This document shows positions 320 to 10,915 of a DNA stretch of 64,000 nt, one piece after another. Each line of letters starts with the position of its first letter. Position 1 is the first letter of the stretch. The notes beneath the pieces are model-generated. The model searched no databases. It saw only the letters and a list, made by a program, of their open reading frames with translations, and was not told the DNA's origin. This DNA is from Alphaproteobacteria bacterium (lineage in GTDB: Bacteria > Pseudomonadota > Alphaproteobacteria > UBA828): assembly GCA_965237415.1 (NCBI GenBank), contig CBDEFM010000002.1, forward strand, positions 3,840,001-3,904,000, given 5' to 3'. The position numbers were made by a program, and so were the translations under genes.

Positions 320-1105
320 ATGTCTGACAGCCGAACCGCGCTCCGCATCGGCACCTGGAACACGTATTGGGCAAAACCGGGAACGGCGCGGGGCCGCCGT
401 GTCGTCGACGCCCTGGCCGCGCCCGGCTGCGACATCCTGTGCGTGACCGAGGGATACGCCGGCATCCCCCCGGTCGGCGGCCATGTCATCGACGCCGGCC
501 CCGACTGGGGCTACCGCGCCCAGGAAGGGCGCCGGAAGGTGCTGCTGTGGAGCAAACGGCCCTGGTCCGATGTCGATCCGGCCGGCTCCGACGCGCTTCC
601 CGGCGGGCGGTTCGTGGCCGGAACCACGGAGACCGTGCTGGGTCCCCTGTCGGTCGTCGGCGTCTGCATTTCTTGGCGCGACGCGCATGTCCGCACCGGC
701 CACAAGGACCGGGGAGCATGGCAGGATCACGAGTCTTGGCTCACCGGGTTCGCGGCGCTGCCCTATCGGCGCGCCGGGGAAAGGACCGTGGTCCTCGGCG
801 ACTTCAATCAACCAATCCCGCGAAGGCGGCAGCCCAAGCGCACCTACGCGGCGTTAAGAGACGCGTTCGCGGAGCTCGCGTTCGCGACCGCCGGAGAGCT
901 CGCGGGGACGCCTGAGCTGGCAATCGATCACATCGCTCATACCCCGGATCTGGCGCTCGCCAACGATATCCGGATTTGGCCGAAGCTGAGCGCCGGAACC
1001 AGACTTTCGGACCATATCGGCGTCCGGGGGGAGTTCGTGCTTTCGCCGCCGCCGCGCCGACTGTCGGACGCCGACGCCGCGAGACGACCGGCCGGCAATG
1101 CCTGA
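320..1105 (+). CDS. Endonuclease/exonuclease/phosphatase (EEP) family protein
   Basis: Motifs IGTWNT, DILCVTE, LGDFNQ, IDHI, LSDH; RBS GAGGGAG. Confidence 0.88.
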   Translation: MSDSRTALRIGTWNTYWAKPGTARGRRVVDALAAPGCDILCVTEGYAGIPPVGGHVIDAGPDWGYRAQEGRRKVLLWSKRPWSDVDPAGSDALPGGRFVAGTTETVLGPLSVVGVCISWRDAHVRTGHKDRGAWQDHESWLTGFAALPYRRAGERTVVLGDFNQPIPRRRQPKRTYAALRDAFAELAFATAGELAGTPELAIDHIAHTPDLALANDIRIWPKLSAGTRLSDHIGVRGEFVLSPPPRRLSDADAARRPAGNA

Positions 1106-1517: not shown

Positions 1518-2045
1518 TCAGAGGTTGAGTAGGCGTCGCAGATTTGTTGTTTCATTGGAGGGTTGGCCTGGAGGACTCCTGAATAAACCGGGTATCATGA
1601 CTTCTGTGGAGAAGGCGGTTCCACTTATATTGAGTAGATTTTTGTTGGCGTCTAAACAGTGGCGAATCAGCAGGTTTTCCACCCAGTCTGCCTCTTTCTG
1701 CCCTAATTTTTTCACGAATCTCTGCCCTCCCGGCGTCATCCGTGCGACAAGGAACATGATCGGCGTTCCTTGCCATTTGAGGACCGCTGTGTTGTAGTGG
1801 AGCAGTTTATGGGGTGTGAAACATTCGTTTTTGAATGACTTCTTGGCTTGGCCGACGTACCAGGGCCTTGCTCCCTTTCCTGCCCGGATGCCGAAGATGT
1901 AGCAGCCGGTCGCGGTTGCCAGCTCGCTGGCCGCGTCGTTCGCGTTCTTCCAAAAACCGCTAAGTCTTTTTCGGTCGACCTGTCGAAGGTCATCGGTGCG
2001 AGGGATGTCGAGCGGCCCGTATACGCGGTAATTCCTTGGTGGCAC
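1518..2045 (-). CDS. GIY-YIG-like nuclease domain protein
   Basis: GCYIF...WYVGQA pair, later WVENLLI and LLN; lower GC than core. Confidence 0.7.
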   Translation of the reverse strand: MPPRNYRVYGPLDIPRTDDLRQVDRKRLSGFWKNANDAASELATATGCYIFGIRAGKGARPWYVGQAKKSFKNECFTPHKLLHYNTAVLKWQGTPIMFLVARMTPGGQRFVKKLGQKEADWVENLLIRHCLDANKNLLNISGTAFSTEVMIPGLFRSPPGQPSNETTNLRRLLNL

Positions 2046-2748: not shown

Positions 2749-2932
2749 CCTGCTTATCCAAGAAAGTCCGCTCACCGATGCCTTGTTCCTGCTCGTGTCT
2801 AAGTCCGACGAGGTCACAACGACGTAGCCGGGAGTTGCACGGTGCGGACTCGGATATGGCACAGCGACTGGAAACCGCGATGGCTCATACGTTGCGTCTC
2901 GGCAGCCTTGCTGAGCTTCATGGATAAGCAGG
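2749..2932. mobile_element. 184-bp MITE (non-autonomous IS derivative), family unassigned
   Basis: Perfect 12-bp TIR CCTGCTTATCCA / TGGATAAGCAGG; 8-bp direct repeat AAAGTTTT at 2741-2748 and 2933-2940. Confidence 0.8.
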
Positions 2933-2967
2933 AAAGTTTTTTTCGCGGCACTAACTCAAAATCTAAT

Positions 2968-3645
2968 TCATGGCGGCACAACATAGGTTTTTATCCTGGT
3001 CTCTTCGCTATATTTTGGATTTACATAAGATAGTGTAATCGTATTACTGTTACTGTTCGTCCAGCCAGTTTCTGCACCGACTGTAACAACTTTCGCTCTG
3101 ATACCAGTTGTCGTGGACCCTTCGGTAACGAAAACGAAATGGAGTTCCAATTTTATCGATTTCGCTTCAAGTACTGGTTTACTATTCAACGAGTCTTGTA
3201 GCGTCTCGCGAATTGATACCAACAACTTGGCAAACTGTATTACTGACCGTTGCGCGGCGCCGAGAGTCTGACTTCCCACAGGTGGGGCGAGAAGTATCGT
3301 CAACCTTGATCCAGTTTTTGTGAACCGTGCGGCCCGGGAATTGACGTTACCACTGCGGAAAATTGGTACCTTCAGTTCTAGATCCACATTGTTCATTACC
3401 TCTTGCTGGACTACTAGTTCGAGTGCAATATCTCTCAGATCGAGGCCCAGCGATGATCCCGCTGTTTGACTAAAGATCTTCAGCTCCCGCTTGATTTCCG
3501 TTAACGTTTTTTTAAGAGAAAGTCCCATCGAAACAGATTCAATTGAACTTTCCATACCCGACAAATAGCTCGCCAATTTCCCCACTCCATCTGCCGCTAA
3601 CAACGCCGCAACAATCGCAAAAAACAACTTGATCGCTTGCATCAT
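2968..3645 (-). CDS. Secreted/anchored protein with two tandem Trypco2-like domains
   Basis: N-terminal hydrophobic segment; two units of helix + LxxIxLEL + beta hairpin (LKKTLTEIKREL..LRDIALEL..SRLTILL; FAKLLVSIRETL..SIKLELHFV..NTITLSY). Confidence 0.65.
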   Translation of the reverse strand: MMQAIKLFFAIVAALLAADGVGKLASYLSGMESSIESVSMGLSLKKTLTEIKRELKIFSQTAGSSLGLDLRDIALELVVQQEVMNNVDLELKVPIFRSGNVNSRAARFTKTGSRLTILLAPPVGSQTLGAAQRSVIQFAKLLVSIRETLQDSLNSKPVLEAKSIKLELHFVFVTEGSTTTGIRAKVVTVGAETGWTNSNSNTITLSYVNPKYSEETRIKTYVVPP

Positions 3646-3646
3646 T

Positions 3647-4849
3647 CTATTTCCGTAGTACTTTCGACGGGAGAACTTTTGGATTAGCGATACCGAACCT
3701 CCCGAACTGCCTATTTATGTATTGACGGTCAACTAGGCCGGCACCCACTACATGAGCAGGCTCGCTCGGCAGAGGTATGGCGGTGTCCAAAAGCAATTGT
3801 TTAACCATCTTCCAGGGGTAATCCGGTAAGTACTCATAGACGACGGAGCCATTAGCATCCTCTATTGCTGTTCCAGTTAATCGATGTTTGGCACGATCGT
3901 AATGGGTGATCCTGTCGTGAGTTGCTGTGAGAGAAAAGAGAGGTTGACCTGTCTGTGTTCCAGCGTTGGTTTGTGCCAATTTTATGAGAAAGTGTAGAAT
4001 CTGTGCGGCGGCGCCTGAAGTGGCGGCCGCCGCTTGACTAGTGCCAGATTCAATTGTGTAAATGTCCCACTTATCTCGTGGCACGACTCTTTGAAATTGC
4101 GCATTTGATTCATCCCGCTGACGGCGCTCTGGCGACTTCTTCAGGTGCCTCGGATAGGGACCGATAACATCGACACCATGAGCAACGACATCCGGCCAGG
4201 ATTCCCGATCATTCGGATCGCCGCGCGACGAAAACGCCGCTACCTTGCCTTTGCTTGCGTCATAGGCACCCGCACAGATAACCCATACTGGATAACACCA
4301 AGGGTTGATCCAACCATTAGGTCTGCCACCAGCACCGCCAGAGTTACCAATGGCGATAATGGGTATTAGACCAGCGTTTGCCGACGCTCTAGTAGCGGCA
4401 TGAATAGGAGCGTCCATGTCCGGAGAGTTACGCCAGAAGCGGGTCTGAGGACCGATGCTTAGGTTCACCAGATTGGGTAACGCTAGCGTCCTAATATTGT
4501 AGTCAAGGGCCGCTATCGTATTAACGTAAAGATCGGCAAGATCAGGATGCAAATACCAAACCTGAAGTACGTGAGGTTCAGTTGCGATCTTGAAGGCATG
4601 CTTGACTAGTAGCTTGGTAGCCAATCCGTTAATCAACTTTAAGAACTTAACTGGCTCTAAAACTTCCCCAATTCCCAAACCCTTTAGTGTAGGTTCGACA
4701 TTATCGGCAAATCGTACGACAAATGTGTAGCGTTGTGATAACTGCAGGCGCAGGGCGTCTAATTTATCCGCCGGTCCGATACTCCCTGCGTGACCGATTT
4801 GCACTACTGCGGTGCACATTCCGAAGAGCAGTAGTAGTTTATGAAACAT
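3647..4849 (-). CDS. Secreted S8 subtilase-like protein, atypical (catalytic Asp/His segments not found)
   Basis: Signal peptide, I9-like prodomain, NLSIG, AIGNSG, AFSSRG, PDVVAHG, SGTSQAA. Confidence 0.8.
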   Translation of the reverse strand: MFHKLLLLFGMCTAVVQIGHAGSIGPADKLDALRLQLSQRYTFVVRFADNVEPTLKGLGIGEVLEPVKFLKLINGLATKLLVKHAFKIATEPHVLQVWYLHPDLADLYVNTIAALDYNIRTLALPNLVNLSIGPQTRFWRNSPDMDAPIHAATRASANAGLIPIIAIGNSGGAGGRPNGWINPWCYPVWVICAGAYDASKGKVAAFSSRGDPNDRESWPDVVAHGVDVIGPYPRHLKKSPERRQRDESNAQFQRVVPRDKWDIYTIESGTSQAAAATSGAAAQILHFLIKLAQTNAGTQTGQPLFSLTATHDRITHYDRAKHRLTGTAIEDANGSVVYEYLPDYPWKMVKQLLLDTAIPLPSEPAHVVGAGLVDRQYINRQFGRFGIANPKVLPSKVLRK

Positions 4850-5279
4850 GGCTTGAAGCTCAGTTTCTAGCTATTTCCAAGGGATCGATACATCGAAGGT
4901 CGCAATGGATAAAGCATGACAGTCATGCAAAAAAACTCATGTATTAAAATGCCATAAGAAGCACATTGCGAGGACATCTGGGGAGTAGCTCTGCATGTCG
5001 AAGTCCAGAACAGTGCTCCGCTTGTGGCCATACCAATTTCTGAACGATCAGGCGTAGGCTTTCCGCGAAAGCCAGAGGCCATGCGGCTATACTCGATGAA
5101 CCGGTAATTGGACTTCCATTCAAATACCGCGCGAGTCTCCGGACCGTGCCTTCAAGCCTCGATGTGTACCACCCGTACGTATCAGGTGACCGGATCGGCC
5201 CCCAGCGACGGACCCAAACTGAACAATAGCACATTTGGAGGCTTCCCGACAAGCACGGTTGCCGGAAGAGCAGTGCCAA

Positions 5280-5704: not shown

Positions 5705-6931
5705 GTGGCCAAGCTAAAGTCGAGTCCAAAGGAGCAGGTAGGCATGTCGCTGATCCGGTTGTCTGTACTGAAAGACAAAGCTTATGCGCCCGAGGCCTAT
5801 GGCGGTATTGCGCTGCATGACTACAGCCGTGCCCAGCGCCGGCCACTGGGCCTGGGCGGCATGGAAACACTCACACCGCCCGAACTTGCTGCGCCGAACA
5901 GCGATTTTCGCCATTATATCGACCGCGCGGTCAAACAAGCGATCGATGTCCCGGACTTTCGCGGGCCAATTGTCGTAATGATCCACGGGTTCCTGTTCGA
6001 CCCCAGGACGGCGGTCAGCGAAGATCCGAAGGACACGGATAATCCTCATGGCCGTGTCTACCATTTCACGAAGAAGCCGGAGCCACAGGAGCAACGCCAT
6101 CATACCGCGAGCTGGCCTCTCGGCCTCGGCTTCGATACCCAGCTGGATGGCGGCAGACAGGGCCTCGCCGTCGCCTTCGGCTGGCAAAGTCAACCCGGAT
6201 TCGCCTCGTCGCTACTCGATTACTCGCAGAATTTCTACGCGCGCGCCTACGACAACGCTGGCAGGACAGCCTGGGTACTGGTCAATTTGATCACTGCGTT
6301 GGCGGAATCGATTCCAGACCGACCGATCGACCTGTTCTGTCACAGTCTCGGTTCTCGGGTCGTCCTGCGCGCACTTGCCCTGATCGCCAAACACGCCGAC
6401 GAAGGTGGCCCGGGTGTGATTCTCGACACAGAGGTGTCGAAGAGGCTCTTGCAGCGTGTCGGCCGCGTGATCATTCTTGGCGGCGCGGAGTATGTCGTGG
6501 AGGCGCAACTCATGTGCCGGCGATTGTCGTCCCGGGATCTCGCTTCCATGCCCCATTTCTACAACATCGTCTCGCGAGAGAACGATGTCCTTGACAAGCT
6601 GGCGGAGAACTTCGGCCCGCGCACCTTCGGCAACAGTCAAGTCATCGGACACAACGGTCTCAACACAGAATACAAGGAGAGCTATTGGATCGATTTGCAA
6701 ATCGACAGCGGCGCTCTCCGTGAGTGGATGCGCGATCCACCCCGCAATATCGACATTTCCGGCGACAATCCCGGCAATGTCTGGGATCATTGGTACTATT
6801 ATACCTACCGCGGAAACATGGAACTTTACAAAAACATTCTGCGTGAGCGCGATTCTTGGTCGATCGTCAACTTGCGCGATGCAGGCGTGCCCGACGGCGT
6901 CCCGCTGCGATGGTGGCGCTTGGGCGATTGA
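5705..6931 (+). CDS. Alpha/beta hydrolase (DUF900/DUF726-like)
   Basis: IHGF, nucleophile elbow CHSLGSRV, ENDVLD, WDHWYY. Confidence 0.78.
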   Translation: MAKLKSSPKEQVGMSLIRLSVLKDKAYAPEAYGGIALHDYSRAQRRPLGLGGMETLTPPELAAPNSDFRHYIDRAVKQAIDVPDFRGPIVVMIHGFLFDPRTAVSEDPKDTDNPHGRVYHFTKKPEPQEQRHHTASWPLGLGFDTQLDGGRQGLAVAFGWQSQPGFASSLLDYSQNFYARAYDNAGRTAWVLVNLITALAESIPDRPIDLFCHSLGSRVVLRALALIAKHADEGGPGVILDTEVSKRLLQRVGRVIILGGAEYVVEAQLMCRRLSSRDLASMPHFYNIVSRENDVLDKLAENFGPRTFGNSQVIGHNGLNTEYKESYWIDLQIDSGALREWMRDPPRNIDISGDNPGNVWDHWYYYTYRGNMELYKNILRERDSWSIVNLRDAGVPDGVPLRWWRLGD

Positions 6932-7333: not shown

Positions 7334-8488
7334 TCACCCCGCGATATTGGCAATTCGGCTCGCGATCCGGTTGGCAGCGGCCTTCAGCGGATCGTTCGCC
7401 AGATGCGCGTAGCGGGCAGTTGTCTCCACCTTGTTATGACCGAGCAATTTCCCGATCATTGTCAGGCCCTCCCCGACCAGCAGACCGCCGCTGGCGTAGC
7501 TGTGCCTGAGGTCATGAAGGCGAACGTCCTTGATTCCGGCACGGCAGCGAATGCGGTGCCACTGGTCGTAGACGTCGCTCAACGGCTCGCCAGGCTTCGG
7601 GCTCGTGATCACCCACGGATTGCCGTCTTCGCGCGCCAGGCCTCGCAGCACTTCAATCGCAGGATCGCCCAGATGGACGATCTTGGCGCCGGTCTTGGAA
7701 TCCGGCAGGCGCAGCTCGCCCCGGTCCAGATCGACGTATTCCCATCGCAGCGTCAGGATCTCCGCCTTCCGGCATCCCGTCAGCATCAGCAGGCGGATCG
7801 CGGCGATGGCCGACGGCCGCTCCGATCCCTCCCTCTCGACTTCCCGCAGGACCTCGCCCAGACGGCGGTATTCCTCGTCCGAGAGAAACCGCTCCCGCCG
7901 CTCTTCCCGAAAGTGCTTGATGTTCCGGCACGGGTTGGAGCCGTCGGGACGCATCTGCCAGAGCTCGGCTACCGAGAACATGCGCGACAGCGTCGCCAGC
8001 ATCCGGTTGGCGTTCGTCGGGGTCGCACGCATGTCGTGGTGCAGGGACGCGACATCGATGCGCTGGACATCCGGTACCCGGCGCGCCCCCAGACGGGGCA
8101 GGATGTAGCCCTCGACCATCTTGCGGTATTGCCGCTTCGTATTAGGCTTGCAGTGGTCGGTCACGTATTCGTCGAGAAAGCGTCGCCCCAGTTCGGCGAC
8201 CGTCGGCGCCTTGGCGTCCCGCAGGTCGCGCCCCGACAGGTCCTTGCCGGTCCTGGCCGCGGTGACGATCTCGGCGGCCCTGGCCCTGGCCGCGGCCGGA
8301 GAGATCGCCCCGTGCGGCCCGATGGTGACTTTCACGGCCCGCCCGCGGTCGCGGTACTTGACGATATAGGTCTTGCGTCCCGAGGGACGGACGCGGACAC
8401 CGAAGCCCTTTATCTCGTCATCCCAGAGGACATGCTCACGGTCCCGGGGTTCGAGGGCGTCGACGGTTCGCTTGGTGATCTTGACCAT
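7334..8488 (-). CDS. Tyrosine integrase with arm-DNA-binding N-terminus (int1), intact
   Basis: WDDEIKGFGVRV; TGCR, K(TG), HDLRH, LLGH, TTARYAH. Confidence 0.95.
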   Translation of the reverse strand: MVKITKRTVDALEPRDREHVLWDDEIKGFGVRVRPSGRKTYIVKYRDRGRAVKVTIGPHGAISPAAARARAAEIVTAARTGKDLSGRDLRDAKAPTVAELGRRFLDEYVTDHCKPNTKRQYRKMVEGYILPRLGARRVPDVQRIDVASLHHDMRATPTNANRMLATLSRMFSVAELWQMRPDGSNPCRNIKHFREERRERFLSDEEYRRLGEVLREVEREGSERPSAIAAIRLLMLTGCRKAEILTLRWEYVDLDRGELRLPDSKTGAKIVHLGDPAIEVLRGLAREDGNPWVITSPKPGEPLSDVYDQWHRIRCRAGIKDVRLHDLRHSYASGGLLVGEGLTMIGKLLGHNKVETTARYAHLANDPLKAAANRIASRIANIAG

Positions 8489-8635
8489 TGCACACTCCGT
8501 TTCTCTTTGCCTGCCGGGAACCGAATGGGTACCCACAGGATGCAAATCGGAGTGTATTATAGTCGGTAACTGTCAGATCGAAAAGACCCTAACTCCATGA
8601 AATATAGAAACTATCGTATGACATGTGCCGACATG

Positions 8636-9718
8636 TCACGACATCCAATGATGATTGCCGATCACCGGCAGGGTCTCGCCGAGCGCCAGCGCACGGGACG
8701 CAAAGCTATGTCTGAGGTCGTGCATCCGGACGTCTTCGAGCCCGGCCGCGGCCCGCACGGTCCGCCAGGCATGGTCGAGACCGCCGCCGCTGTAGCGCCC
8801 GTCCCGGTCGTTGCCCGGAAACACCCAGGGGCTGTCCTTGCGTCGCGGCAGTTCTTCCAATAGCGCCACCGCCGTCGGCGGGAGCTGCACCGCGCGGGGA
8901 CCGGTCTTGGCATCGCCGAGATGGAGCTCGGCGGCGTCGAGATCGACGTCCGACCAGCGCAGGGTCAGGATTTCGCTCTTGCGGCAGCCGGTCAGCATCA
9001 GCAGGCGGATCGCCGTCACGGCCGTCAGCGGAGCGGCGCCGCTGTCGACGGCCTCGTCCAGCGCCCGCCCGAGCCGGGTGAACTCGGCATCCGTGAGGAA
9101 CCGCTCGCGGGAACGCTCGGGGTATTTCTCGACCGACCGGCAGGGATTGAAGCCCTCCGGCACAAGTCCCCATCCCGCGCCCAGCCGGTACATGTGCGAC
9201 AGTATCTTGACGCACTTGTTCGCGGTGACAGGCCGATCGGAGAGCTTCTGGTGGAACTCGACAATATCGCTCCGCTCGACCGCTTCGAGGGGCAGCTTGC
9301 CGAGGGCCGGCAGGATATGATTGTTCAGCATGCCGCGAACGCGCAGCTGTGTCCTCGGCTTGATCCGCACCGCTGCATGCTCTTCGAGATAGCGTTCGGC
9401 AAGGTGGGCCACGGTCGGACCGCCGTTGAGCCTGGCGGCAAGCGGCAGGGGCACCGGATCCTCGCCCGCCCTGATGCGCGTGATGATGAACGCCGCCCGC
9501 TGGCGGGCCTGGTCGGCATTGAGCACGTCGTGCCGGCCGACCGTGATCCGACGGGTTGTCCTGTCGGGCTCTCGCGCCTGGGCGATGTAGACCTTGCCGC
9601 CGCCGGGATAGACCCGGATGCCGAAGCCGGGGAGTTCGCGGTCCCAGTAGACCGTGTCGCGCTCGACCCTGAGCGCCGCCACGGCGCGGTTGGTGAGCGT
9701 CGTCTTGTGCACTGCCAC
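8636..9718 (-). pseudogene. Tyrosine integrase (int2), C-terminally truncated
   Basis: Ends ...HDLRHSFASRALALGETLPVIG|NHHWMS*; lacks LLGH and the catalytic Tyr. Confidence 0.9.
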
Positions 9719-9730
9719 CGCGCGGTCTCC

Positions 9731-10915
9731 TTACGCCGCCTCGGCGCGGCCCGGAACGATCTGGGCGCCAATGCTGTCTCCGGTGCGGGCGGCGGCGGTC
9801 TTCTCGGCGTCTCGCACTAAGTGGGCGTATCTTGCGGTGGTGCCGACCCGGACATGGCCGAGCAGCCGGCCAATCGCGGGCAGGCCCTCGCCCAGGGCCA
9901 GGGCGCGGGAGGCATACGAGTGTCTGAGATCGTGGACCCGCACGTCGCGCAGCCCGGTCTCCTGCTTGATCCGCCGCCAGTGGTAAGAGAGGCAGGCCAG
10001 CCGGGAGCCCGGTTTGGCGCCCCGGAGGACCCAGGGAACGTCCTCGGCCCGCTCGATGCCGTCGAGCACCTTCAGCACCGGCCCGGTCAGCGGCACCATG
10101 CGCGGACCCGTTTTCGAGTCGCGCAACCGCAGCACCCGCGCCGTGCGGTCGACGTCGTCCCATTTCAGGGTGAGGACCTCGTCCGACCGGCAGCCGGTCA
10201 GCATCAGCAGGCGGATTGCCGCGACCGCGGAGGGCATCATCGAACCCTCGGTCTCCAGCCTGGTCAGCGTCGCGCCGAGATGCCGGTACTCCTCGGGGGT
10301 CAGGAAGCGCTCGCGTGACGTATCGCGGTACTGGCGGACATGGCGGGTCGGCCTGCGGCCGGGCGGCACCATCCCCCAGTTCTCGGCGAGTGCAAACATC
10401 TTGGAGAGCACCCACACCACCTGGTTCGCCGCCGCAGGAGTGTCCCGCAGCTTGTGGTGCAGCGCCGTCACGTCCTCCGGCCCGACATCCTTCAGGGCCT
10501 TCGTTCCCAGGGTGGGGAGGATGTGGTGCTGGATGGCCAGCCGGTAGTTCTTGGCCGTGCTCGGCTTGCACCGCACATCCACGTATTTCTCAAGGCAGCG
10601 CTCGGCCAGATCGGCGACGGTGGGCTCCGGGGCCGGTTCCGGCGGGATCGGATCCTCGCCCCGCTTGATCCGGTCGATGACGGCGGCGGCCTCGCGCCGA
10701 TGCTTGTCGATCGGGTCCTTGCCGACCCGCCCCAGGGTGACCCGCTTCAGGCCGGCCGGCCCGCGGGACTGGACGATGTAGAGCTTGCGCCCGGTGGTGT
10801 GGACCCGGACGCCGAAGCCGGCGAGGTCGCGGTCCCAGAAGATCGCGTCCTTGCCCTCGGCCTTCAGCCGTTCCACAATCCGCTTGGTCAGCCTGAGGGT
10901 GCTTCTCTTGGGCAT
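9731..10915 (-). CDS. Tyrosine integrase with arm-DNA-binding N-terminus (int3), intact
   Basis: WDRDLAGFGVRV; TGCR, HDLRH, LLGH, TTARYAH. Confidence 0.95.
   Translation of the reverse strand: MPKRSTLRLTKRIVERLKAEGKDAIFWDRDLAGFGVRVHTTGRKLYIVQSRGPAGLKRVTLGRVGKDPIDKHRREAAAVIDRIKRGEDPIPPEPAPEPTVADLAERCLEKYVDVRCKPSTAKNYRLAIQHHILPTLGTKALKDVGPEDVTALHHKLRDTPAAANQVVWVLSKMFALAENWGMVPPGRRPTRHVRQYRDTSRERFLTPEEYRHLGATLTRLETEGSMMPSAVAAIRLLMLTGCRSDEVLTLKWDDVDRTARVLRLRDSKTGPRMVPLTGPVLKVLDGIERAEDVPWVLRGAKPGSRLACLSYHWRRIKQETGLRDVRVHDLRHSYASRALALGEGLPAIGRLLGHVRVGTTARYAHLVRDAEKTAAARTGDSIGAQIVPGRAEAA

Follow-up and report, generated by a model that had tools for sequence, protein, structure and literature searches.

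A mobile two-gene cassette pairing a subtilase that lacks its Asp/His half with a tandem Trypco2/Pepco protein

Analysis of a 64,000-nucleotide stretch of the genome of an Alphaproteobacteria bacterium of the UBA828 lineage (GenBank assembly GCA_965237415.1, contig CBDEFM010000002.1, positions 3,840,001 to 3,904,000 of the forward strand; hereafter the window, with positions counted from its first base) revealed a mobile cassette of two genes, of which the first encodes a 400-amino-acid (aa) derivative of the subtilase (S8) family, termed here the half-subtilase, and the second a 225-aa protein with tandem Trypco2/Pepco units. The domain anatomy of the half-subtilase, the family-wide loss of the half of the catalytic domain that carries Asp and His, the conservation of the catalytic Ser and the oxyanion-hole Asn, the strict pairing of the two genes and the mobility of the cassette are described below, and on this basis we tentatively interpret the pair as a protease-Pepco module that attacks the membrane. 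Protease-licensed death effectors have newly emerged as a dominant logic in prokaryotic immunity, and in all characterised ones, to our knowledge, the protease is of trypsin or caspase type, intact and controlled by a sensor; the present cassette keeps the Pepco effector and has its protease swapped for a subtilase without a third of the catalytic domain.

A subtilase without its Asp/His subdomain

The product of gene 1 matched the Pfam profile PF00082 (Peptidase_S8) with an E value of 1.4e-18 (67.7 bits against a cut-off of 21.8), and the match was restricted to residues 123-286, corresponding to profile positions 109-255 of 288; the same profile was matched by all 25 of the aligned family members. 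As had been claimed in an earlier reading of this DNA made from the letters alone (the sequence-only reading), the frame is open over 400 aa, holds no DTG, DSG or HGT motif and retains GNSG and GTSQAA, whose Asn169 and Ser271 corresponded in a phmmer alignment to Asn155 and Ser221 of subtilisin BPN'. An AlphaFold2 (AF2) model computed from a 25-sequence alignment (mean predicted local distance difference test (pLDDT) score of 90.5, predicted template modelling (pTM) score of 0.88) was compared with known structures using VIA-align. Mature subtilisins superposed on the model from its residue ~103 only, beginning at chain residue ~99 and extending over 173-180 residues (1svn and 5arb, model residues 103 to 380 against chain residues 99 to 275, 173 residues, root-mean-square deviation (rmsd) of 2.3-2.4, Z ~15.6), whereas pro-subtilisins aligned over 237-274 residues from model residue 18-39, the best matches being 3afg_A (Z 23.4) and 3whi_B (Z 20.1). 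In this one AF2 model the pro-forms therefore gained ~65-100 aligned residues over the mature forms, and Z rose from ~15.6 to 19-23. The same register was returned by a profile search of the PDB, in which profile position 113 fell on residue 107 of BPN' and position 112 on residue 112 of mature Tk-SP, or residue 224 of the Tk-SP pro-form. The ESM Atlas yielded generic S8 clusters only (0.88).

All 400 residues are covered by a leader, an N-domain and the truncated core, and no sensor domain is present. According to the AF2 secondary structure the core carries two family-specific insertions (residues ~234-262 and ~296-344), in which the near-invariant Lys238, Asp/Glu246 and Arg323 are located. 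The N-domain in the model appears to be positioned where a subtilase propeptide sits and to resemble an I9-type propeptide in structure only; Inhibitor_I9 (PF05922) was matched by none of the 25 family members at E <= 1. The sequence-only reading had seen an I9-like domain joined straight to the region of the NxSxG strand, which agrees with this arrangement, the likeness being structural. The junction between the N-domain and helix D measures ~3 residues, and because of this fusion the propeptide-like domain cannot be released. With respect to family membership, the protein has the S8 profile, the oxyanion Asn and the substrate-binding strand, and is without the Asp-His-Ser triad and the complete seven-stranded fold. 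Members found at E < 1e-60 span 320-518 aa, and the two long ones that were sampled had no added Pfam domain.

Conservation was determined across 62 full-length members that share 24-95% identity (median 40%) with the window protein. The subdomain equivalent to that of Asp32 and His64 was missing from all 62, and the same architecture was found in all 37 homologues; the deletion is thus a property of the family, which removes the possibility, raised with the sequence-only reading, that it is private to one protein. Identity in at least 60 of the 62 members was reached at only 23 of the 400 positions. These include the canonical S8 positions Gly168 (62/62), Ser131, Gly269 and Ser271 (61/62 each) and Asn169 (60/62), together with the family-specific residues Trp98, Lys238, Arg323 (61/62), Tyr340, Gln351 and Asp355; Gly133, on the substrate-binding strand, was present in 51/62. 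Position 238 was occupied by Lys in 60 members and by Arg in two, position 246 was always acidic (Asp in 50, Glu in 12), and the oxyanion position 169 was Asp in two members (P0070 and P0064). Across the 62 members, residues 23-102 held no conserved acid or His, except His101 (41/62).

One of these two exceptions, P0070 (428 aa, E 5.7e-66 to the family profile), carries Tyr in place of Ser271 as well as Asp in place of Asn169, has no Pfam S8 match and may represent a fully dead lineage; in P0064 the Asp at position 169 is accompanied by an intact Ser271. Because Ser271 and Asn169 were lost together in P0070, the sole case of Ser271 loss, the two residues are suggested to act as one functional unit.

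Other locations for the absent catalytic residues were considered and rejected. A diverged complete S8 N-half with a triad through Asp49 and His84, the spacing of which fits Asp32 and His64, was discarded as neither position is conserved among the 62 members (Pro in 17 and Asp in 14 at position 49; Asp in 17 and Thr in 8 at position 84) or in the 25-homologue alignment, and VIA-align alignments starting at model residue 66-77 gained just ~7 residues with a worse rmsd. Migration of the catalytic His to His101 or His366 was discarded because 8 of the 62 members are without both, and transfer of the Asp/His half to the C-terminal insertion by circular permutation because no Asp or His is conserved there (Asp312, 26/62).

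The partner protein, its pairing and the mobility of the cassette

The product of gene 2 matched PF19631 (Trypco2) in two stretches with an E value of 1e-11 (45.3 bits against a cut-off of 24.2), in line with the two Trypco2-like units named in the sequence-only reading; the two-unit architecture is predicted from Pfam alone, and a pairwise test for an internal repeat was not significant (35 against 29 +/- 5.8 for shuffles). An alignment of 15 partners showed the order hydrophobic segment, unit 1 (residues 42-120 in the L002 and 38-113 in the L009 orthologue), poorly conserved linker, unit 2 (a helix and strands) and a tail of ~19 residues. The last strand, N-x-[IVL]-x-L, directly precedes this tail, whose final Pro is invariant in the alignment; 13 of the 15 partners terminate in PP or in PP and one further residue, and the last 24 residues of the partners include 4-9 charged residues and 1-4 Pro. 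We also observed in the linker after unit 1 (window residues ~110-124, alignment columns ~115-130) a GSK-T-hydrophobic-PP motif with invariant Ser113 and Pro122, which recalls the way unit 2 ends in a strand and PP, as though both units had once possessed a tail of their own. The partner evolves fast, so that a word-based search gave just 4 relatives. Its monomer model (pLDDT 48.7) was too poor for a fold search, an unsurprising result if the protein is one chain of an oligomeric barrel, and a predicted complex of residues 23-400 of the S8-like protein with residues 36-225 of the partner (score 0.36; 0.41 for one control) gave no verdict and was used neither way.

A scan of one genome per species for the S8-like protein supplied 14 further loci, which together with the window make up 15 loci from Alpha- and Gammaproteobacteria, Verrucomicrobiota and Desulfobacterota (a Desulfobacteraceae metagenome-assembled genome (MAG)). 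All-against-all clustering of the open reading frames (ORFs) placed a Trypco2-type orthologue directly downstream of the S8-like gene in 15/15 loci, and all 13 of the downstream ORFs tested exceeded the Trypco2 cut-off, 11 of them in two stretches. Absence of a Trypco2 match and an unconserved pairing had been named as outcomes that would undo the sequence-only reading; neither was observed. No third conserved gene was found across the 15 loci, the other clusters being antisense shadows or synteny between the close relatives L003 and L008; the flanking genes at the 14 loci were unrelated and of housekeeping type, and no conserved immunity or secretion-system gene stood beside the pair at any of the 15.

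Export signals were compared across the same loci. A leader on the S8-like protein was evident at 11 of the 15, ambiguous at one (L011) and absent at L003, L008 and L012, and a comparable leader was present in at least 18 of the 25 aligned S8-like members. At L011 a leader-like hydrophobic stretch (4890-4977) lies in frame 5' of the called ATG and has no ATG, GTG or TTG start. A Kyte-Doolittle scan detected a hydrophobic N-terminal segment of 19-24 residues in 14 of the 15 partners; no Lys or Arg precedes it in 9 of these 14, and in 14/14 the Lys and Arg on its C-flank equal or outnumber those on its N-flank. From these features the partner N-terminus looks like a membrane anchor, not a cleavable leader. 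The claim that both genes encode hydrophobic leaders thus holds for the S8-like protein, whose leader is of Sec type, but the partner segment is anchor-like and its description as secreted is not established. In the window partner, Lys6 precedes the segment and Asp and Lys follow it, a charge pattern compatible with an exported orientation. At L012 (459-2279) both proteins are without a hydrophobic N-terminus, and at L003 and L008 (S8-like ORF starts 4908 and 4914) the S8-like protein is leaderless and the partner anchor has three Lys/Arg on its C-flank; the localisation signals of the two proteins seem to co-vary, in few cases and from MAGs.

The composition and spacing of the two genes were as the sequence-only reading had given them, namely an AT-richer pair in which a single base separates the TAG stop of gene 1 from the ATG of the downstream gene 2. 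The G+C content (GC) was 0.45-0.55 over positions 2751-5000 compared with 0.61-0.73 beyond 7250, and the cassette lies 2.5 kb from three tandem P4-type integrase genes. A genome profile search returned gene 2 as the only Trypco2 match in the whole genome, the S8-like protein was absent from 60 related genomes at E <= 1e-30 (0/20 of the same genus, 0/36 of the same family), and plasmid and phage collections gave no match at E <= 1e-10 (tblastn). Taken together, the low-GC island, the adjoining integrase genes, the lack of a match in the 60 relatives and the single genome copy establish that the cassette is mobile. The coordinates of its features are given in Table 1.

Table 1. Features of the cassette, in window positions
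Feature	Position	Strand	Basis
Gene 1, 400-aa S8-derived half-subtilase	3647..4849	(-)	ORF; PF00082 match; 37 homologues; AF2 model
Sec-type leader, residues 1-22 (MFHK, hydrophobic core, HAG|S)	4784..4849	(-)	Read from sequence
N-domain, residues ~37-100, beta-alpha-beta, subtilase-propeptide-like	4550..4741	(-)	VIA-align; structure only
Truncated subtilase core, residues 103-384, ~ BPN' 99-275	3698..4543	(-)	VIA-align; PDB profile search; secondary structure
Asn169 codon (GNSG), oxyanion-hole Asn155 equivalent	4343..4345	(-)	BPN' alignment; conservation
Lys238 codon, start of first insertion, putative role	4136..4138	(-)	Near-invariant base; role inferred
Ser271 codon (GTSQAA), subtilisin Ser221 equivalent	4037..4039	(-)	BPN' alignment; conservation
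Gene 2, 225-aa tandem Trypco2/Pepco protein with N-terminal membrane segment	2968..3645	(-)	ORF; PF19631 match
Hydrophobic membrane segment, residues ~4-22	3580..3636	(-)	Kyte-Doolittle; helix 2-29 in low-confidence model
Trypco2 unit 1, residues ~40-120, helix then beta hairpin	3286..3528	(-)	Second Pfam stretch; 15-partner alignment; boundaries approximate
Trypco2 unit 2, residues 139-206	3028..3231	(-)	Best Pfam stretch, profile positions 4-75 of 78; genome search 3028-3234
C-terminal tail, residues 207-225, charged, Pro-rich, ends PP	2971..3027	(-)	15-partner alignment

The three integrase genes (Arm-DNA-bind_3 and Phage_integrase) lie on the same strand at window positions 7334-10915 (-); the middle one (8636-9718), possibly truncated, reaches only position 140 of the 172 in the profile. 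A search of the whole 64-kb window revealed neither tRNA nor tmRNA genes. Divergent from the cassette, positions 5705-6931 (+) encode a 408-aa alpha/beta-hydrolase with matches to DUF900 (E 6e-5) and, weakly, to the Tle3 phospholipase effector (E 0.05); its gene was not conserved beside the pair at the other 14 loci. An ORF of the endonuclease/exonuclease/phosphatase family at 320-1105 (+) (PF03372, E 4e-12) and a 175-aa ORF at 1518-2045 (-) (GC ~0.53), for which Pfam, NCBIfam and PADLOC gave no family match, probably also belong to the cargo of the island.

To place the half-subtilase among S8 proteins, 1.84 billion representatives were searched with the family profile, giving 5571 matches at E <= 1e-3, 495 at E <= 1e-10 and 69 at E <= 1e-30, and 26 of the best 150 matches were sampled. 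PF00082 was matched only from profile position 87-142 on by 24 of the 26, the other two being P0144, a full canonical S8 protein, and P0070, which has no Pfam match; three of the 24 (P0115, P0116 and P0130) have 140-290 residues ahead of the match, which might hold a diverged N-half. On the strength of the 24 N-truncated proteins in this sample, the half-subtilase scaffold is much more widespread than the Trypco2-linked clade, and N-truncated S8 proteins make up a large unnamed superfamily of metagenomic proteins. The wider group shares with the cassette family a beta-alpha-beta N-unit joined to helix D and the GN and GTS motifs; unlike in that family, many of its members have no leader, the Lys238 insertion is missing, and a Glu (EPMN) and a His (HxxGxG) peculiar to the group are invariant. 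In six wider-group proteins an invariant His-Gly, resembling that of the canonical His64 helix, was observed in an insertion that follows the PGxDV hairpin and precedes the GTS serine, and from the alignment it may be a relocated catalytic His. No Trypco2 protein was encoded among 10 flanking ORFs at 6 metagenomic loci of the wider group, and the pairing therefore cannot be extended to it.

A proposed mechanism and competing explanations

Pepco is described, in the accessible part of the study by Evans et al. (2025, 10.1101/2025.11.14.688446), as a pre-assembled beta-barrel pore toxin of anti-phage defence that is licensed when an adjacent protease removes its C-terminal tail, and Trypco1/2 are treated there as Pepco. 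According to the same part of that study, the 117-aa Streptomyces Pepco (SsPepco) assembles into beta-barrels of nine or ten subunits that resist heat and SDS, the neighbouring trypsin-like Avs4 protease cuts it after Ile97 to remove a 2-kDa tail (40% charged, 20% Pro), a construct ending exactly at Ile97 kills Escherichia coli, mutation of the catalytic Ser of the protease abolishes toxicity, and the characterised Pepco acts on the producer's own membrane (10.1101/2025.11.14.688446).

Tail-licensed pore formation is taken from the literature; for the present cassette we infer that the two proteins bind and that the tail is cleaved, and likewise which base serves, what opens the pore and where the proteins act. 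The reading that we tentatively favour, as a real possibility short of a probable one, is that the cassette is a self-contained, horizontally mobile protease-Pepco membrane-attack module in which the half-subtilase removes the tail of its partner by limited His-independent hydrolysis. The gene 2 product would be the pore-former, with two Pepco units per chain and an N-terminal helix that tethers it to the inner membrane; five chains would provide ten units, as in a barrel of single-unit Pepco. The closed beta-barrel would be kept inactive by the charged, proline-rich C-terminal tail, as in characterised Pepco, until the half-subtilase docks this tail in its retained S8 cleft and removes it by slow, limited hydrolysis, using Ser271, the oxyanion hole and a non-canonical base, for which Lys238 would be the best candidate. 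Loss of the tail, prompted for instance by an attacking phage or by damage to the envelope, would open the pore and kill or arrest the cell. Limited His-independent cleavage is favoured because the Ser131-Gly133 strand, Asn169 and Ser271 are held by selection down to 24% identity and Ser and Asn are lost together; the retained parts are exactly those that bind the peptide and stabilise the tetrahedral intermediate in S8 enzymes.

A number of observations weigh against this reading. The general base for Ser271 is no more than a candidate, and this candidate, Lys238, lies in one of the insertions. No His is conserved in the family (His101 in 41/62, His366 in 27/62, neither in 8/62), and hhalign aligned the invariant His-Gly of a sister group, carried there in an insertion at the equivalent site, to window residues 245-246, where position 245 is variable (Arg in 30, Tyr in 11 and Ala in 11 of 62) and is followed by the acid at 246, a pattern that looks like a His lost rather than replaced. 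P0070 indicates that at least one lineage persists without Ser and Asn, and there is no sensor domain to account for triggering. The P1 Ile conserved in Pepco beside serine proteases could not be identified in the partner tails, the SsPepco sequence not being in the alignment. The charge bias around the partner anchor suggests, by the positive-inside rule, a cytoplasmic Pepco domain in many members; given the export leader of the S8-like protein, the membrane would then lie between the two. The cassette has no known defence phenotype, and PADLOC-DB 2.0 gave noise-level matches for gene 1 (PDLC03014 'subtilase', E 4.8e-4, 17.7 bits; IetS, E 0.021) and none for the partner.

A more radical form of this mechanism, which we regard as unlikely, would make the half-subtilase a new catalytic type of the subtilisin clan, in which Ser271 and the oxyanion hole work with a recruited Lys238, or near single turnover, as the fuse of a sensor-less tandem-Pepco pore with a physical trigger. 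Such a trigger might be rupture of the inner membrane, which would allow the exported half-subtilase to meet the pore tail, an idea that gains weight if in most members the membrane really does separate the two proteins. An active half-subtilase would represent a new serine hydrolase design on the subtilisin scaffold; a dead one would be a pseudoprotease regulator of a pore toxin.

The latter alternative is doubtful on present evidence and yet deserves serious consideration. As a true pseudoprotease, the half-subtilase would hold the PP-terminated tail or the barrel in its cleft, acting as an antitoxin-like clamp, as a chaperone or as an adaptor through which a housekeeping envelope protease gains access to the tail, and the pore would open once the clamp was lost, titrated or degraded. 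The loss of the Asp/His subdomain from every full-length member, with no conserved His or evident base in its place, the alignment of the sister-group His-Gly to a non-conserved position and the full-length ORF that P0070 retains after losing both Ser271 and Asn169 are all consistent with this, as is the tightly coupled upstream position of gene 1, which recalls the gene order of antitoxin-toxin pairs. Precedents are provided by the subtilase pseudoproteases CspC and CspA, as far as the accessible sources describe them, and by proteins with PCSK9-type binding roles among the top structural matches; furthermore, recognition of a C-terminus would be in keeping with the invariant Pro at the end of the partner and with Lys238 and Arg323, both near-invariant. 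Such a regulator would, however, not be expected to keep Ser271, Gly269, Asn169 and Gly168 among the 23 most conserved of 400 positions, since known pseudo-subtilases have no such conservation, and the joint loss of Ser and Asn in the sole exception speaks for a functional unit; tail binding is itself a role predicted from sequence.

The function could also lie outside suicide and defence, an unlikely option in our view, the pair being instead an exported antagonistic or envelope-remodelling system (a competitor-directed pore toxin with its maturation factor, or a membrane-stress device) that reuses a Pepco-type barrel. The export signals found in most members (S8-like leader at 11/15 loci, partner anchor at 14/15), the lack of a sensor or an NTPase, the housekeeping-type neighbours at the 14 loci, the empty phage and plasmid searches and the absence of a PADLOC match for the partner would all fit. 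Release of the partner is nevertheless made unlikely by the membrane anchor that it keeps, no conserved immunity or secretion-system gene accompanies the pair, the characterised Pepco hits the producer's own membrane in the accessible part of its description (10.1101/2025.11.14.688446), and the sporadic distribution on islands fits defence cargo. Decay of a once normal subtilase to the present S8-like gene, with an accidental pairing, has nothing but the missing catalytic half in its favour and is refuted by the open frames, the same architecture in 62/62 members down to 24% identity, the synteny at 15/15 loci across phyla and the confident predicted fold; we consider it extremely improbable.

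Relation to known systems

Compared with canonical subtilases (MEROPS S8, PF00082), the half-subtilase retains, besides the profile match of 67.7 bits, the fold from helix D onwards and the equivalents of Ser221, Asn155 and the Ser125/Gly127 strand, whereas the equivalents of BPN' residues 1-98 (strands 1-3 and helix C, which carry Asp32 and His64) are gone and two insertions have been added. CspC and CspA of Clostridioides difficile and PCSK9 are likewise S8-fold proteins that work without normal turnover, and structures of a prodomain with a catalytic domain were among the best structural matches (9pr8_D, Z 19.2; 5vla_A, Z 19.3). The resemblance ends there: the Csp proteins have the full fold with point changes in the triad and PCSK9 has an intact triad, while in the half-subtilase a whole subdomain is gone and the Ser is kept, and the biology is unrelated. 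The NCBIfam models for CspC and CspBA gave 16.5 and 23.6 bits, against cut-offs of 675 and 1250.

Kaur et al. (2020, PMC7159879), in the accessible text, defined Trypco1 and Trypco2 as domains encoded next to trypsin-like peptidases in vWA-MoxR conflict systems, the presence of one excluding the other; the terms Trypco2, Subtilisin and Peptidase_S8 did not occur in two supplement files of that paper. In the accessible part of Evans et al., S8 proteases are named only beside MBL effectors, not beside Pepco (10.1101/2025.11.14.688446). Among the papers listed by full-text searches on Trypco2 and on Pepco with a peptidase, and in the passages and the two supplement files named above, we found no description of an S8-Pepco pair.

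As far as the accessible descriptions go, the cassette shares with protease-Pepco modules a Pepco-family protein beside a peptidase-fold protein, tight linkage, joint mobility and a sporadic distribution, as well as a Pepco unit built of an amphipathic helix, beta strands and a charged, Pro-rich tail of ~20 residues; its own tail of ~19 aa is similar in composition to the 20-aa charged, Pro-rich tail cleaved from SsPepco. By this analogy the cassette would belong functionally with protease-Pepco death modules. The proteases of those modules, in the same descriptions, are serine enzymes of trypsin-like or cysteine enzymes of caspase-like type, with intact active sites and fused sensors (STAND/Avs, FGE or peptidoglycan-binding), whereas the cassette has an S8 derivative without Asp, His or sensor, and its Pepco is in tandem and membrane-anchored, with export signals in most members; it thus lacks two defining features of the class, an intact protease active site and a sensor. 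The sequence-only reading had proposed an undescribed conflict module, whose S8 protein may, as suggested there, be a pseudoprotease or decoy, or an enzyme activated by its partner, and may act at the envelope. Its conflict part is strengthened by the experiments, in the accessible part of that work (10.1101/2025.11.14.688446), that identified Pepco as a pore toxin licensed by a protease, but the claim of novelty has to be narrowed: the protease-Pepco class itself is already described, and what is new, within the literature covered above, is its S8-based, sensor-less, tandem, membrane-anchored variant.

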